The notes under the pieces: generated by a model
What the model saw: only the letters and a program-made list of their open reading frames with translations
What the model was told of the DNA's origin: nothing
Database searches by the model: none
From: Candidatus Kaiserbacteria bacterium
GTDB taxonomy: Bacteria > Patescibacteriota > Minisyncoccia > Phycocordibacterales > Phycocordibacteraceae
Assembly: GCA_026396675.1 (NCBI GenBank)
Contig: JAPLWI010000013.1
Location: 1,218 to 65,217 of the forward strand
Direction of reading: 5' to 3'
DNA: 64,000 nt
Program-made: the position numbers and the translations under genes
Shown: one piece after another, positions 7,506 to 62,941 of the stretch
Numbering within the stretch: the stretch's first letter is position 1
Layout: each line of letters begins with the position of its first letter

Positions 7506-8762
7506 TTATTTTTTGTGTCTGCGTAGGAATGCCGGAATTGCACCCCATGCTTCATCATCTTCTGGAACCACTGGCGCCTCTTCGCGTTTATGCGGCAATG
7601 CAGTTACGATTGGTTCGTCTTTTTGACTCATAACGGTACCTTCCGGATTTAGTTCCTGATTTTTTACCTTTGCCGATTTTTCGGGTTCGGATTTTTCATC
7701 GCGTTTTAGAATCTCATGATAAATACGTCCTCTTTCCTCCTCGTGCTTTTCAGCAGGTAGTGAGAAGAGAGATCGTTCAAGGATAGTGTGCGAAGCAGTT
7801 ACTGCATCTGGGAATCCAGTTGCGATAACGATAATACGGATCTGTCCTTTTTTAAGTTTCTCGTCACGCATAATTCCGAAAATAACCTTCGCACTCTTAT
7901 CAATGGACTCACTGATAACCTTCGCCGCCTCCTGTACTTCCATGATCCCGAGATCATCAGAGCCGGCGACGACAAAGAGAATGCCGCGCGCACCACTGAT
8001 GGAAACATCGAGAAGTGGAGAATTGACTGCCTGGCGAGCAGCTTCTCTAGCACGCTCATCGCCTTCGGCGATGCCGATGCCCATAAGCGCCGGTCCAGCG
8101 CCTTCCATAATCGCCTTAATGTCATTAAAGTCAGTGTTGATGTCTCCTGGAGTCGTGATGATGTCTGAAACACCCTCAACCGCCTGACGCAAGATTTCAT
8201 CGCACATCGCAAAGGCATTTTTCGCCGAAGTGTTGGTGTCAACAATAGAAAGCAACTTATCGTTTGGAATAACGATGAATGCGTCAACTTCTTTTTTTAA
8301 TTCAGTTAATCCTCTCTCAGCAATATCGCGTCGCTGAGCTCCTTCAAAAGAAAATGGCTTTGTCACAACAGCGATAACCAGCGCGCCAACTTCTTTCGCT
8401 ATTTTTGCAATGATAGCGGAGGCGCCCGTTCCAGTTCCGCCACCCATTCCGCAGGTGATGAACACCATATCGCTTCCTGAGAGCGCTTCTTGAATTTCTT
8501 GTCGCGTCTCCTCGGCAGCACGCTTGCCGAGTTCGGGATTCATACCGGTGCCGAGGCCTCGCGTGAGATTCTTCCCGATGTGAATTTTGCGTTTAGAAAG
8601 CGAACGATGAAGATCCTGCGCATCAGAGTTAACGGCAATAAATTCAACGCCGCGAACCTTCGATTCAATCATGTGATTTATCGCGTTCTTACCTGAACCG
8701 CCTACTCCAACTACACGAATCCGTGCGAATGTCTCAATCTCTGGTTCAATGCGTTTTGACAT
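7506..8762 (-). CDS. ftsZ: Cell division GTPase FtsZ
   Basis: VVGVGGSGKNAINHM, GGGTGTGAS tubulin signature, C-terminal disordered tail. Confidence 0.95.
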   Translation of the reverse strand: MSKRIEPEIETFARIRVVGVGGSGKNAINHMIESKVRGVEFIAVNSDAQDLHRSLSKRKIHIGKNLTRGLGTGMNPELGKRAAEETRQEIQEALSGSDMVFITCGMGGGTGTGASAIIAKIAKEVGALVIAVVTKPFSFEGAQRRDIAERGLTELKKEVDAFIVIPNDKLLSIVDTNTSAKNAFAMCDEILRQAVEGVSDIITTPGDINTDFNDIKAIMEGAGPALMGIGIAEGDERAREAARQAVNSPLLDVSISGARGILFVVAGSDDLGIMEVQEAAKVISESIDKSAKVIFGIMRDEKLKKGQIRIIVIATGFPDAVTASHTILERSLFSLPAEKHEEERGRIYHEILKRDEKSEPEKSAKVKNQELNPEGTVMSQKDEPIVTALPHKREEAPVVPEDDEAWGAIPAFLRRHKK

Positions 8763-8839
8763 AAGAATATAAATAATGTGTTTCCGCTATGATAGCAGAA
8801 CCACGCCATATGCAAATATTGACAATGTAGGGATATAAG

Positions 8840-9340
8840 ATGTTAAAATTAACTAGAATGGAACAAAAGATTGATATAGAAAGAGCTATACGCGACCATC
8901 ACAAACTTATAGAAATTTCGCGGAAGTTATACGATGCAACCCCAGAAATTCTTTGTCCTTATTTCAAATCAAATGTCTCGCTTACTTCTGACGGTTTCAA
9001 TCACCTATTACATAAACCGAATAGACAGCCGAGAAATATCCAAGAGCAGAAACTGAAACTCAGATTGTTAAAGCACGGCCTCGCTATCATTAGTAACACA
9101 GGTACGCTTCAGGAATATAGAACCACTCTTGAGAAATATGGAACACCAGGAAGAGATGGATTCAGTAAAACGAAACAAGTTGAATATTGGGGTTTCCATA
9201 ACATTGTTGGTAAAGAACCGATGATTCTAATTCGCATAATTATAAGAAGAATCGGCGATGGGAAATTACATTTTTGGAGTGTGATGCCAATTGGGAAAAT
9301 AGGAAAGCAAAAACTGTATAGAAATGATGTGGAAGAATAG
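8840..9340 (+). CDS. Uncharacterised ~160-aa protein, copy A of a duplicated module (paralog at 62317-62796)
   Basis: Clear paralogy to the minus-strand ORF at 62317-62850 (GFNH, V.YWG, IGDG.LHFWS..P, K.Y blocks). The conserved start is probably ATG 8858 (MEQK...). Confidence 0.7.
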   Translation: MLKLTRMEQKIDIERAIRDHHKLIEISRKLYDATPEILCPYFKSNVSLTSDGFNHLLHKPNRQPRNIQEQKLKLRLLKHGLAIISNTGTLQEYRTTLEKYGTPGRDGFSKTKQVEYWGFHNIVGKEPMILIRIIIRRIGDGKLHFWSVMPIGKIGKQKLYRNDVEE

Positions 9341-9377
9341 TAAACAGAAAAGCCGCCCAACGGGCGGCTGCTCTGTC

Positions 9378-9443
9378 GTGCCTGCCTTCAGCTTAGGTAA
9401 TCCTTAGCCGATAAGGGGCTTACGCCCACAGGCACGGACTCAT
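9378..9443 (+). ncRNA. Conserved structured element (predicted three-way junction), copy A; preceded by hairpin 9352-9368
   Basis: Outer stem GTGCCTG...CAGGCAC encloses two hairpins (GCTTAGG/CCTTAGC and GGGC-TTAC-GCCC). About 85% identical to the reverse complement of 62221-62283. Confidence 0.5.
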
Positions 9444-9486
9444 TATACACTATGACCACAGCTCGGCAACATTTTCCACAAGCTCC

Positions 9487-9684
9487 TCATTTTGCAAGGT
9501 CCATGGAAATTTTGTAGCCCAGATACAAAACACAAAGAAAAGATGTGACTATATATCCATTCATAAAACCGAATCGCCCATCATTTTCTGGGGCGTAGCC
9601 AAGAAGAAAAGTTGCGGCTGCAAAAATCAAAACGAAATAAAGAAAGTTCTTCCAGAAAATTTTATCTTGCAAAGGAAGTTTCAT
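9487..9684 (-). CDS. Small 2-TM membrane protein, translationally coupled to ftsA (start 5 nt after the ftsA stop)
   Basis: Internal Met of ORF 9487-9801. TGAGTAAAATG coupling arrangement, two hydrophobic helices. Confidence 0.4.
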   Translation of the reverse strand: MKLPLQDKIFWKNFLYFVLIFAAATFLLGYAPENDGRFGFMNGYIVTSFLCVLYLGYKISMDLAK

Positions 9685-9689
9685 TTTAC

Positions 9690-10850
9690 TCAAGGCAAAA
9701 ATTGACGCATAAATTTCCCTAAATGCGCACCGATACTCTTCTTCGGAGCGTTTGTGTCGCCAGTTAGACCCCAGAGCGCGAGACCATATGCAACTGCCCA
9801 TGTCGCATCACGAATTTTTGTATCCGAAGAAATGCGAAATTCAGCAAGCCGTGCAGGAAGTTTTAACGAACCCTTCGCAATGTCGCTTATACTTCCAATG
9901 CCAGCACCACCACCAGAAATGATAATACCAGCCGGTAAAGGACCACGACGACCGAGTGATTTTAAATGCTTATCAATAAGCGCGAACATTGCTACAAGAC
10001 GACTTCCGATAAGATCATCGACTTTTTTACGTGGATACATTTGTCCTGAGAGCCGACCAATTTTTACACGTTCCGCTTCTTCAAGCGAGATACGAAGTCC
10101 CAAAGCGATGTCGTCTGTAATATGACTTGAGCCCATCGGGAATACCTTTACGGATACTGGAATGCCCTCATCGTAGACAACGATAGAAATTGTCTCAGCA
10201 CCGATATTAGCTAGCACACAACCCTTCATTTTCTGGTCGCCTTCGAGGAGTACGTATGAGCCAGCGAGTGGGGAAGCCATTTGGTCGATGATTTCAATAT
10301 CTGCATCTTCGACTGCTTTCGCGAGAGCGTCTTCATGTTGCGCTAGGCAAGTTACGAAAAGATAATCAACTTCAAGCCGAACGCCTTTCATGCCGAATGG
10401 ATCACCAAGCACTTTTGCGCCATCAATACGATATTCAAGTGGGATGCTGTGCAGAACGTGTCGATTAAGAAACCCTGGTGCCGCCACTTCGCGAGCCGCC
10501 TTTCCTGCCTTCTCAAGGTCGAGAGATGTTATTTCTTGGTCGGCTCGCGAGATAATCGCCGAGCCAGTTGCGCGCGATTCGTCGAGCGAAATTCCACCAA
10601 CTGCAAGGAATCCAGAACGAATCGGAATGCGCGCCGACGCCTCTGCTTGTCTCTTTGCTTTCACGATGCAAGCAGAAACCTCTTCTTTATTTACGATGTA
10701 ACCGTGCCGTAGGCCTTTTGATTCGGCGAGGCCAGTACCAAGAATCCGCAATTGACGCAGACCACTGCGTTTGTCCGAGATTTCTTCGACGGTGACTATC
10801 TTTATCTGATAGGTACCGATATCAATGCCGGTCGCTACGCGTCGTGACAT
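9690..10850 (-). CDS. ftsA: Cell division protein FtsA
   Basis: Actin-fold motifs (GIDIGTYQIKIV, ISGGGAGIGSISD). Confidence 0.9.
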   Translation of the reverse strand: MSRRVATGIDIGTYQIKIVTVEEISDKRSGLRQLRILGTGLAESKGLRHGYIVNKEEVSACIVKAKRQAEASARIPIRSGFLAVGGISLDESRATGSAIISRADQEITSLDLEKAGKAAREVAAPGFLNRHVLHSIPLEYRIDGAKVLGDPFGMKGVRLEVDYLFVTCLAQHEDALAKAVEDADIEIIDQMASPLAGSYVLLEGDQKMKGCVLANIGAETISIVVYDEGIPVSVKVFPMGSSHITDDIALGLRISLEEAERVKIGRLSGQMYPRKKVDDLIGSRLVAMFALIDKHLKSLGRRGPLPAGIIISGGGAGIGSISDIAKGSLKLPARLAEFRISSDTKIRDATWAVAYGLALWGLTGDTNAPKKSIGAHLGKFMRQFLP

Positions 10851-62164: not shown

Positions 62165-62220
62165 TTGGAAACAGCGTTACCCACACCCTCATTGATTCCT
62201 CACTTCCTATCCTGTATAGT

Positions 62221-62283
62221 ATGAGTGTGCCTGTGGGGCGTCAGCCCTATTCCGGCTAATCGTAAGCCGAAGGCAGGCATATC
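62221..62283 (-). ncRNA. Conserved structured element (predicted three-way junction), copy B; preceded on the minus strand by hairpin 62284-62316
   Basis: The reverse complement reads ATGCCTGCCTTCGGCTTACGATTAGCCGGAATAGGGCTGACGCCCCACAGGCACACTCAT, homologous to 9378-9443. Confidence 0.5.
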
Positions 62284-62316
62284 AAAATCACCGACCTCGC
62301 GTCGGTGTTTTTGATT

Positions 62317-62796
62317 TTAGTCCTCCTCGGGATTACCCTTCATTGTGCTGTAGAGCTTTATGTCGCGGTATTTGTTCGTCGTCCACGCTGGCACAATGCT
62401 CCAGAAATGGAGTTGGCCATTATCGCCGATTTTTCGCAGGATGACTTTTATCTTGCGTCCATCAATAATCGCTATGATGCCCCAGTACTTTACAGACCTG
62501 CTTCTCTGAACCTTTTTCTTATAGCTCTTCACTTCAAATTCTTTGAGCGTTTCTTCATATTCCTGATAAGTCGTTGAGAGTTCTACGAGCTTTACGGCTT
62601 TCGGCAATAACTTAAATCGCAGGATTTGTGATGGACGCTCGCGCTCGCTCCGTGAGCCCTTAAAGATGATGTGATTGAAGCCCTCGGCGGTAAAATAAAC
62701 ATACTCACCAAGCGCGGGAGATTGGATAGGACGTATACTCGCGTAGAACTTCTGCGCGTCCTCACAGAGTTTTTCGTAGTTAGATACATCTTCCAT
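62317..62796 (-). CDS. Uncharacterised ~160-aa protein, copy B of the duplicated module (paralog of 8840-9340)
   Basis: Aligns end-to-end with copy A. The ORF track extends it to a TTG at 62850; the conserved ATG (MEDVS...) is at 62796. Confidence 0.7.
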   Translation of the reverse strand: MEDVSNYEKLCEDAQKFYASIRPIQSPALGEYVYFTAEGFNHIIFKGSRSERERPSQILRFKLLPKAVKLVELSTTYQEYEETLKEFEVKSYKKKVQRSRSVKYWGIIAIIDGRKIKVILRKIGDNGQLHFWSIVPAWTTNKYRDIKLYSTMKGNPEED

Positions 62797-62941
62797 TGAG
62801 AATAGTTTACACCGTTGCAAGCAAATCTGGTATAAATATCTTATATGCAAACTGTGATTTACCAGTCAGAAGTACGGTTCTGACTTCATCCAAGTCCCGC
62901 AGCCGGCGCTTTTTACTTGGAATTATGCTATACATTTAACT

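Follow-up and report, generated by a model that had tools for sequence, protein, structure and literature searches.

A basic protein family of Patescibacteria is encoded next to a convergent three-way-junction small RNA in a common two-gene cassette

Introduction

Most Patescibacteria are uncultured, and their small genomes are in large part without annotation. In a 64-kb stretch of Candidatus Kaiserbacteria DNA, which was analysed as a whole and is referred to here as the window, an ORF for a protein of about 160 aa is accompanied by a hairpin and a conserved structured element. The initial annotation had recognized two copies of this arrangement, here called A and B, and had interpreted them as one module of protein, hairpin and element that was duplicated within the genome. 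The locus thus raises the question of what kind of element is kept next to the ORF, from which strand it is read, how closely it is tied to the protein gene and what both might do together.

Results

Two copies of the cassette in the window

As initially annotated, the ORF of copy B is homologous to the ORF of copy A, with 33% identity between the two proteins across 137 aligned residues (E 4e-26). In the DNA alignment of the two units, the conserved element is far better kept than the ORF DNA and the similarity continues into the flank, in line with the earlier expectation that it is not limited to the protein. A covariance model built from 77 homologues matches the window at two places only, at copy B (62221-62295, plus strand, 77.9 bits, E 3.6e-23) and at copy A (9363-9441, minus strand, 62.4 bits, E 5e-18), corroborating a structured element of about 55 nt common to both copies. 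The hairpins, given with all other features in Table 1, are indeed unrelated in sequence. The similarity reaching into 'ACTCAT..TATACA' is likewise real and represents, on the other strand, the 5' leader and the -10 box of the small RNA gene described below. Only part of the similarity claimed upstream of the ORFs stood, as 'ATGGAA' is the conserved ORF start with a -10-like hexamer (TAAACT or TAAAAT) 6-8 nt before it, whereas the pair 'tgcaaata/tgcatata' is not conserved across the family. The neighbours of copy B are those named before, i.e., genes for DUF3850/ASCH, GIY-YIG and Methyltransf_31 proteins and tRNA-Gln.

For copy A, the ORF finder had placed the start at 8840, a position overlapping the -10 box of ORF A. 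The start codon is most likely the ATG at 8858, because this position is supported by the alignment of homologues and by the 160-aa NCBI protein P0121, which is 100% identical to copy A. Copy A should be annotated from 8858, and an sRNA gene should be added opposite these ORFs. The TAAAAT of the putative ORF A promoter is located 8 nt ahead of this ATG; since the promoter scan was limited to spacers of 16-18 nt, the promoter with its 19-nt spacer was not called. Position of the -10-like hexamer 6-8 nt before the ATG is conserved in 61 B-type loci, and a Shine-Dalgarno sequence is absent, suggesting that the ORF mRNA is probably leaderless.

Table 1. Features of copies B and A in the window, with positions counted from its first nucleotide.
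Feature	Position	Strand	Characteristics and source
ORF B	62317..62796	-	159 aa + stop; B subfamily; ORF list and translation
-10-like hexamer of ORF B, TAAACT	62804..62809	-	7 nt ahead of ATG; no Shine-Dalgarno sequence
Terminator B, hairpin CACCGAC/GTCGGTG	62289..62307	both	7-bp stem; T-run on each strand; terminator scan
sRNA B, about 92 nt	62226..62317	+	ends approximate; three-way junction, then terminator
sRNA B three-way junction	62227-62280	+	P1 7 bp; P2 5 bp with GUCA loop; P3 about 6 bp with loop
sRNA B promoter	62192..62220	+	TTGATT, 17 nt, TATAGT; TG ahead of -10; promoter scan
DnaA-box-like motif TTACCCACA	62177..62185	+	6 nt upstream of sRNA B -35
ORF A	8858..9340	+	160 aa + stop; A subfamily
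Putative ORF A promoter	8819..8849	+	TTGACA (8819-8824), 19-nt spacer, TAAAAT (8844-8849); read from sequence
Hairpin A, GCCGCCC/GGGCGGC	9351..9369		between ORF A and sRNA A; terminator scan
sRNA A, about 96 nt	9341..9436	-	ends approximate; three-way junction, then terminator
sRNA A three-way junction	9378-9435	-	P2 with GNRA loop GUAA; longer P3
sRNA A promoter	9442..9469	-	TTGCCG, 16 nt, TATAAT; 10/12 matches; promoter scan
DnaA-box-like motif TTTTCCACA	9472..9480	+	inverted relative to sRNA A; 2 nt upstream of its -35

The structured element is an sRNA gene of its own, opposite to the ORF

In nearly all of 80 loci collected by their protein gene (see below), the stop codon is followed by the same succession of an A-run, a variable hairpin, a T-run and the conserved element, then after about 8 nt by a TATA-like box and about 17 nt further by GTCAA or CAATGA. 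Read from the opposite strand, this order turns into TTGACn-N17-TGnTATAnT, 7 nt, the element and a terminator. Accordingly, the family consensus TTGacT-N17-TGnTATAnT, ending 7 nt before helix P1 of the RNA, is a sigma-70-type promoter, and promoter and terminator flank the element on this one strand in about 180 loci. When the 1451 pair cells are read on the proposed RNA strand, standard pairs make up 98.8%, with 168 G.U cells against 10 A.C cells; read on the ORF strand, the G.U pairs turn into A.C mismatches and the paired share falls to 87.9%. The hairpin of copy A scores as intrinsic terminator on the minus (sRNA) strand only, in agreement with the RNA strand, and that of copy B is called on both strands, representing a bidirectional intrinsic terminator common to ORF B and sRNA B. 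Hence, from the G.U/A.C strand test, the promoter consensus, the promoter and terminator scans and the two loci L114 and L117 with a rearranged gene order, it follows that the structured element is a small RNA gene in its own right, encoded opposite to the ORF, with its own promoter and with its end at the hairpin. The initially described module is real and repeated, but its element is not a 3' extension of the ORF transcript. An RNA acting as 3' UTR element on the ORF strand was also considered and rejected, given the orientation of the promoters and the G.U/A.C count.

RNA structure and covariation

Overall, the RNA is about 95 nt long and consists of a single, non-repetitive junction of about 55 nt, at which the three helices P1, P2 and P3 meet, and the terminator. 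P1 is 7 bp long, P2 combines 5 bp with a tetraloop, and P3 starts with about 6 bp, followed by a conserved A.A mismatch and 1-3 more pairs; the joining strands are conserved. The tetraloop of P2 is GUCA in B-type, GNRA in A-type and CUUG in C-type RNAs, and with these loops and the matching differences in the junction the RNA subtype tracks the protein subtype. The sequence varies in the P3 loop and in the terminator, neither of which resembles a guide-like segment.

When 77 distinct sequences were aligned independently with MAFFT, 98.8% of the cells were paired, compared to 31-45% after shifting the partners by one to three columns, and the observed values were reached by none of 500 shuffles. 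Seven of the 19 pairs in this alignment have changed on both sides. An alignment of 105 sequences gave 99.0% paired cells and nine of 19 pairs changed on both sides, values leaning towards the structure as this alignment was fitted to the covariance model. Taken over both alignments, shifted partners pair in 30-45% of the cells. Compensatory changes are present in each of the three helices. Full-length sRNAs, i.e., junction plus terminator, show fold z-scores between -5.9 and -7.4, with -44.7 kcal/mol (z -6.2) for sRNA B and -56.6 kcal/mol (z -7.4) for sRNA A. Single sequences of the element fold equally well on either strand.

When the whole window was scanned with Rfam 15 at gathering score, only tRNAs reached the threshold, and a permissive scan (E <= 10) of positions 9300-9520 gave chance-level matches of 20 bits or less; the RNA is without an Rfam family match on either strand. 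For the RNA and its pairing with the protein, neither a description in the literature searched nor a match in curated libraries was found. In some B-type loci, an AUACAU P3 loop and an AUGUAU near the start codon were noticed by eye, but the idea that the sRNA loop pairs with the start of the ORF mRNA was dropped because the loop of copy B differs (AAUCGUAA).

Linkage of RNA and protein genes

The protein-anchored set comprises 80 loci from species-representative genomes. In 79 of them, the RNA is found within about 100 nt of the ORF, and 77 of these 79 (about 97%) have the convergent arrangement. The sole locus lacking the RNA is L058, where the ORF runs into a serine-recombinase-like ORF. 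Two loci, L114 and L117, have the complete RNA cassette of DnaA-box-like motif, -35, -10, junction and terminator upstream of the ORF and in the same orientation, showing that the pairing is kept when the genes are rearranged and that the RNA forms a transcription unit of its own. The RNA is also present at all five further A-type loci (L253-L257, with L253 cut by a contig end) and at the B-type locus L004. A third, C-type subfamily shows 29% identity to the B protein, and in all seven loci fetched a diverged RNA of the same shape is found at the same position and in the same orientation, scoring 30-36 bits with the covariance model where the contig allows.

Searching from the RNA side, an exact 24-mer of the RNA core retrieved 120 metagenome loci. 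A convergent protein homologue is present in 109 of these, with the 24-mer lying 30-90 nt from the ORF stop in all but one (108/109), and three of the 120 loci have no room on the contig for a protein gene. Among the eight leftover loci, four or five have intact orphan sRNA genes and another one has an insertion; intact RNA genes without protein are found in L216, L227, L232 and L241, and L151 and L251 have only the P2-P3 sub-motif in a different setting. The architecture, the RNA strand and structure and a near-obligate linkage are thus common to three subfamilies and two gene orders. As initially suggested for checking, further copies were sought in other genomes, and the module extends far beyond the window.

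Clustering the flanking ORFs of roughly 200 loci did not reveal a recurrent third gene. A large serine recombinase is found in the flanks of five loci, and an ORF family assigned by eye as NYN-like in about nine.

A DnaA-box-like motif at the sRNA promoter

Many loci have a DnaA-box-like 9-mer whose position ahead of the sRNA -35 is fixed at a distance of about 6 nt and which deviates by at most one mismatch from the textbook DnaA-box consensus TTATCCACA; a DnaA-regulated promoter would be expected to have a 9-mer matching TTATNCACA next to it to which DnaA binds. The motif occurs at 31 of 79 and 81 of 184 sRNA promoters (about 40%) compared to 1.5% of control windows. Both copies in the window have it, although one-mismatch occurrences are not rare within the window (24 found versus 13 expected). 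The inverted orientation observed in copy A is also present in L095, L114, L117 and L121.

The protein family

The family comprises 1323 cluster representatives at 50% identity (E <= 0.001), mostly solo proteins of 140-165 aa, and 689 homologues show 74-92% identity to copy B. The proteins are basic, with pI values of 9.3-9.8 (9.4 for copy B). In B numbering, G39, H42, R52 and Q78 are invariant. The AlphaFold model of copy B (pLDDT 83.6) shows an alpha+beta fold that combines helices at the N-terminus with four long antiparallel strands and a helix at the C-terminus, the latter having low confidence (pLDDT < 50 for residues 140-159). Solved structures gave no confident match to this model, and a sequence-profile search of the PDB gave no match.

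With Pfam, NCBIfam, PHROGs and PADLOC, the window proteins show nothing above threshold. However, the LPD3 model (PF18798) is matched by 17 of 79 diverse family members at E <= 0.01 (best E 1.7e-6), copy B scoring 14.5 bits (E 0.041) and thus staying below the gathering threshold of 27 bits, and copy A without a Pfam LPD3 match. A fold search against BFVD gave weak matches to LPD3-annotated polyvalent phage proteins, with probabilities of 0.91-0.93 for the two best polyvalent proteins and 0.44-0.69 for two entries named LPD3. The 17 matching members point to a distant relative of LPD3 rather than a member of it. LPD3, the large polyvalent protein-associated domain 3, has been described as one domain inside giant phage and plasmid proteins and has itself no known function (Iyer et al., 2017; PMC5512222). 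Unlike LPD3 proteins, the family studied here is made up of solo chromosomal proteins with an RNA partner.

Distribution, paralogy and genomic context

Metagenomes of Patescibacteria are rich in homologues of both proteins. In the small genomes of this group, the cassette is very widespread but patchily distributed, and it occurs sporadically in Alphaproteobacteria (L081, L092, L096 and L099). Several diverged copies may reside in one genome, as in the window, in C24_bin-1043 (L054, L072 and L115) and in MFKU01 (L050 and L119), and some contigs have two cassettes in tandem. The assumed duplication of the unit within the genome did not hold as a recent event: since A and B are each 80-92% identical to proteins elsewhere and only 33% identical to one another, they are, judged by this divergence, ancient paralogous cassettes of deeply diverged subfamilies.

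Between loci, the cassette alone is shared (for B, roughly 62200-62800), but never the flanks. The site of copy A, between ftsZ and ftsA, is also that of relatives whose proteins are 80% identical, whereas a relative with 64% identity is located elsewhere and contexts differ at larger distances. Neither in the window copies nor in L046, L059, L061 and L096 were terminal inverted or direct repeats found, and domain searches did not give a transposase, recombinase or nuclease signature in the protein. Direct repeats of 60-82 nt bracketing L047, L048, L049 and L107 were rejected as transposon ends, being lineage-specific, and an IS110 gene near L001-L008 belongs to that one locus only. A tblastn search against plasmid and phage collections gave no match, and a 16-position RNA pattern with 15 specified bases had 37 matches in viral contigs, all by chance and none with the element. 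Two homologues are labelled 'IS4 transposase' by JGI, and many homologues are found on contigs of about 1 kb.

Discussion

Each locus represents a self-contained two-gene cassette of about 660-700 bp. The first gene encodes a basic protein of about 160 aa distantly related to LPD3, probably from a leaderless mRNA, and the second, convergent gene encodes an sRNA of about 95 nt with its own sigma-70-type promoter, often with a DnaA-box-like site just upstream. This sRNA folds to a conserved three-way junction and ends at an intrinsic terminator common to the first gene. With a confidence somewhat short of even, we favour a model of cognate partners, with the protein controlled by the RNA in a manner loosely resembling a type III toxin-antitoxin system. 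In this model, the RNA junction and loops would provide the binding site for the neighbouring protein, and the most likely logic would be an RNA restraining the protein as a type III RNA antitoxin does. The A and B versions might then be two pairs without cross-reaction, and the DnaA-box-like site could couple the RNA supply to the replication status. Restraint by the RNA is tentatively favoured because the pair stands alone, because diverged pairs coexist in one genome and because of the asymmetry expected of an antidote, i.e., orphan RNAs occur while intact protein genes without RNA do not.

In type III systems, the antitoxin RNA is made up of tandem direct repeats processed into units, it neutralises a toxic protein by binding it directly, and all genes are encoded on one strand. 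Like ToxIN, CptIN and TenpIN, the cassette combines a protein of about 160-170 aa with an adjacent dedicated non-coding RNA and a terminator between them, several diverged pairs can coexist in one genome, and the order of promoter, RNA, terminator and ORF in L114 and L117 is the type III order. However, the RNA here is a single three-way junction and not a tandem-repeat array, its gene is convergent with its own promoter in about 97% of the loci and shows the type III order in two of 79 only, and the protein has no useful sequence or fold similarity to PADLOC models or solved structures. The protein is not recognized as an endoribonuclease of the ToxN/AbiQ, CptN or TenpN type. None of the tested features defining type III or type I systems was established for the cassette.

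The main rival to the antitoxin model, which we consider unlikely, is a domesticated, DnaA-coupled regulatory ribonucleoprotein, in which the RNA would be a scaffold or cofactor, or would be chaperoned by the protein, in a host function in replication or division, the cassette being neither a selfish nor a defensive module. The presence of a DnaA-box-like site in about 40% of the sRNA promoters, with its position fixed, would fit this, as would the stable location of the A-type copy between ftsZ and ftsA in related genomes and the wide spread of the cassette in small Patescibacteria genomes. Yet the distribution is patchy with several diverged copies per genome, contexts differ at larger distances, the occurrence in Alphaproteobacteria is sporadic, a few loci adjoin large serine recombinases and some contigs have tandem stacks of the module, all of them traits of accessory cassettes. 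Adjacent protein-RNA ribonucleoprotein pairs are represented by Rsr/Ro60 with Y RNA and by Rom with RNA I/II of ColE1. These resemble the cassette in that a structured RNA with conserved loops is encoded beside its binding protein, but have no sequence or structural relation to it.

Improbable in our view is a type I-like antisense control, where a duplex at the shared terminator would lead to degradation of the ORF mRNA and the junction would merely stabilise the sRNA. The 3' ends of the convergent transcripts would be complementary over about 30-35 nt, and the bidirectional terminator shared by the convergent genes in about 97% of the loci as well as the independent sRNA promoter are indeed reminiscent of the type I pairs bsrG/SR4 and txpA/RatA of Bacillus subtilis, which are convergent, have 3'-overlapping antitoxin RNAs and likewise meet at a shared terminator. 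Generally, type I antitoxin RNAs base-pair with the toxin mRNA, and type I toxins are small hydrophobic peptides, usually under 60 aa, whereas the protein of the cassette has 159-160 aa and is alpha+beta, soluble and basic, with a pI of 9.4-9.8. Moreover, the overlap is the terminator only, and its hairpin sequence varies freely, while the conserved part, the junction, is outside the ORF transcript. In L114 and L117, where the RNA is upstream on the same strand, there is no overlap and no complementarity and the pairing is nevertheless kept, and hairpin A is a poor terminator on the ORF strand.

Still, the fact that only the cassette and never its flanks is common between loci might suggest a small mobile element, with the protein as mobility or homing factor and the RNA guiding or priming the reaction, and homologues on contigs of about 1 kb, the two 'IS4 transposase' labels and the 60-82-nt direct repeats around four related loci could be read in the same way. 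We regard this as highly improbable in view of the lack of terminal repeats in the window copies and in L046, L059, L061 and L096, of a recombinase or nuclease signature and of a variable guide-like RNA segment; besides, close relatives have the same insertion site, and plasmid and phage collections gave no tblastn match, the 37 viral pattern matches being due to chance. Very little credence, finally, can be given to an element acting as DNA, i.e., as protein-binding or recombination site and not as functional RNA, as although single sequences fold equally well on both strands and a DnaA-box-like DNA motif adjoins the element, the G.U versus A.C asymmetry (168 versus 10), the compensatory changes in all three helices and the promoter and terminator around the element on one strand in about 180 loci argue against it.

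Returning to the cognate pair, a protein gene with a dedicated adjacent sRNA is of a known kind, within which there is a fair chance that the cassette represents a new class of system. More specifically, it is a possibility, albeit a doubtful one, that a solo LPD3-like effector is checked or armed by a junction sRNA with a DnaA-sensing promoter. If true, this class would stand either for a new type of toxin-antitoxin or defence system or for a regulator coupled to replication, it would rank among the commonest accessory cassettes of Patescibacteria, and the orphan LPD3 domain would gain its first functional handle, RNA binding. An RNA that binds and controls the protein would also broaden the small set of protein-RNA toxin-antitoxin-like systems, and the DnaA-box-like site suggests an accessory cassette tied to the replication status. 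The genome of Brevundimonas sp. BR2-1, with locus L096 on contig NZ_JARKMV010000001.1 at about 1,632,569-1,638,042, is not labelled as MAG, so the cassette may be open to experiment. As it stands, a new class of structured sRNA with good covariation support has been found almost obligately linked to a large unannotated protein family, and two very common 'hypothetical' features of the Patescibacteria thereby gain a concrete structure that can be tested.

Genomic context of the cassette

In the window, copy A of the cassette lies between ftsZ and ftsA (7506-10850), with its ORF on the strand opposite to that of both flanking genes, and a promoter-like site is found just upstream of ftsZ. The same placement of an A-type cassette is also seen in relatives at 80% protein identity, for example, at locus L254 (1665-4800). 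At this position, transcription coming from ftsA would be stopped by the cassette terminator before it reached ftsZ. Upstream of the copy B ORF, about 100 nt (62840-62905, minus strand) are common to the window and locus L059 (about 2390-2500), including a GTCAGAA...TTCTGAC hairpin, and this stretch is absent from most other loci.

Positions of cassette neighbors and flanking repeats; coordinates refer to the window or to the locus named.
Feature	Locus	Position	Strand	Remark
ftsZ	window	7506-8762	-	one flank of copy A
ftsA	window	9690-10850	-	other flank of copy A
Promoter-like site TTTGCA/16/TATCAT	window	first hexamer starts 8816, second ends 8789	-	just upstream of ftsZ
Direct repeat	L047	2397-2456 and 3196-3255		
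Direct repeat	L048	380-456 and 1079-1155		
Direct repeat	L049	2386-2451 and 3086-3151		
Direct repeat	L107	2397-2478 and 3105-3186		
Serine recombinase region	L058	2486-3811		
Serine recombinase region	L103	2926-4506		
Serine recombinase region	L081	559-2343		

Repeats, recombinases and multiple copies

Four related B-type loci (L047, L048, L049, and L107) bear direct repeats of 60-82 nt on both sides of the cassette, with an identity of 82-88% and a spacing of 699-799 nt. A GCGAGCGG...CCGCTCGC hairpin is located inside the repeat in three of the four, while the L047 repeat holds only its second arm, and a minus-strand ORF also seems to have its 5' end within the repeats. These could be att-like remnants or, alternatively, tandem paralogous genes.

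Large serine recombinase genes directly adjoin the cassette at five of about 200 loci (L058, L103, L081, L219, and L243). At L058, the family ORF has lost its last five codons and reads on into the recombinase-like ORF, and the sRNA was not found within 2.5 kb. At one Kaiserbacteria locus (L001-L008, 1555-2493), the cassette is preceded at a distance of about 500 nt by a gene for an IS110-family transposase and followed, as judged by eye, by a tRNA-like gene (L004 3800-4050, minus strand) with an insert of about 170 nt between its two halves, possibly an intron.

Two complete tandem cassettes, one B-type and one A-like, are present at L135 (2449-2524 and 3243-3320) and, in the same arrangement, at L147. 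Directly upstream of the first sRNA gene, L100 (3007-3078 and 3164-3250) carries a second, diverged one with its own promoter, and a second ORF was not seen.

RNA core and occurrence beyond the phylum

The P2-J-P3 core (GGGGCGUCAGCCCUAUUCGGCUAAUAGCUG) was also encountered with a different closing stem at L151 (202-265, plus strand), just upstream of an unrelated ORF, and at L251 (1203-1233, plus strand). At both, the family protein is absent and an sRNA promoter or terminator was not recognizable by eye; the same RNA module may here be put to use in another setting.

Four records with the cassette are from Alphaproteobacteria (L081, L092, L096, and L099), the hosts being Brevundimonas sp. BR2-1, the only one without a MAG label, and Brevundimonas, Caulobacteraceae and Stakelama MAGs. 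At L096, the translations of the neighboring genes, read by eye, point to an XRE-like regulator and a protein resembling non-specific endonucleases. This alphaproteobacterial occurrence suggests transfer of the cassette across phyla.
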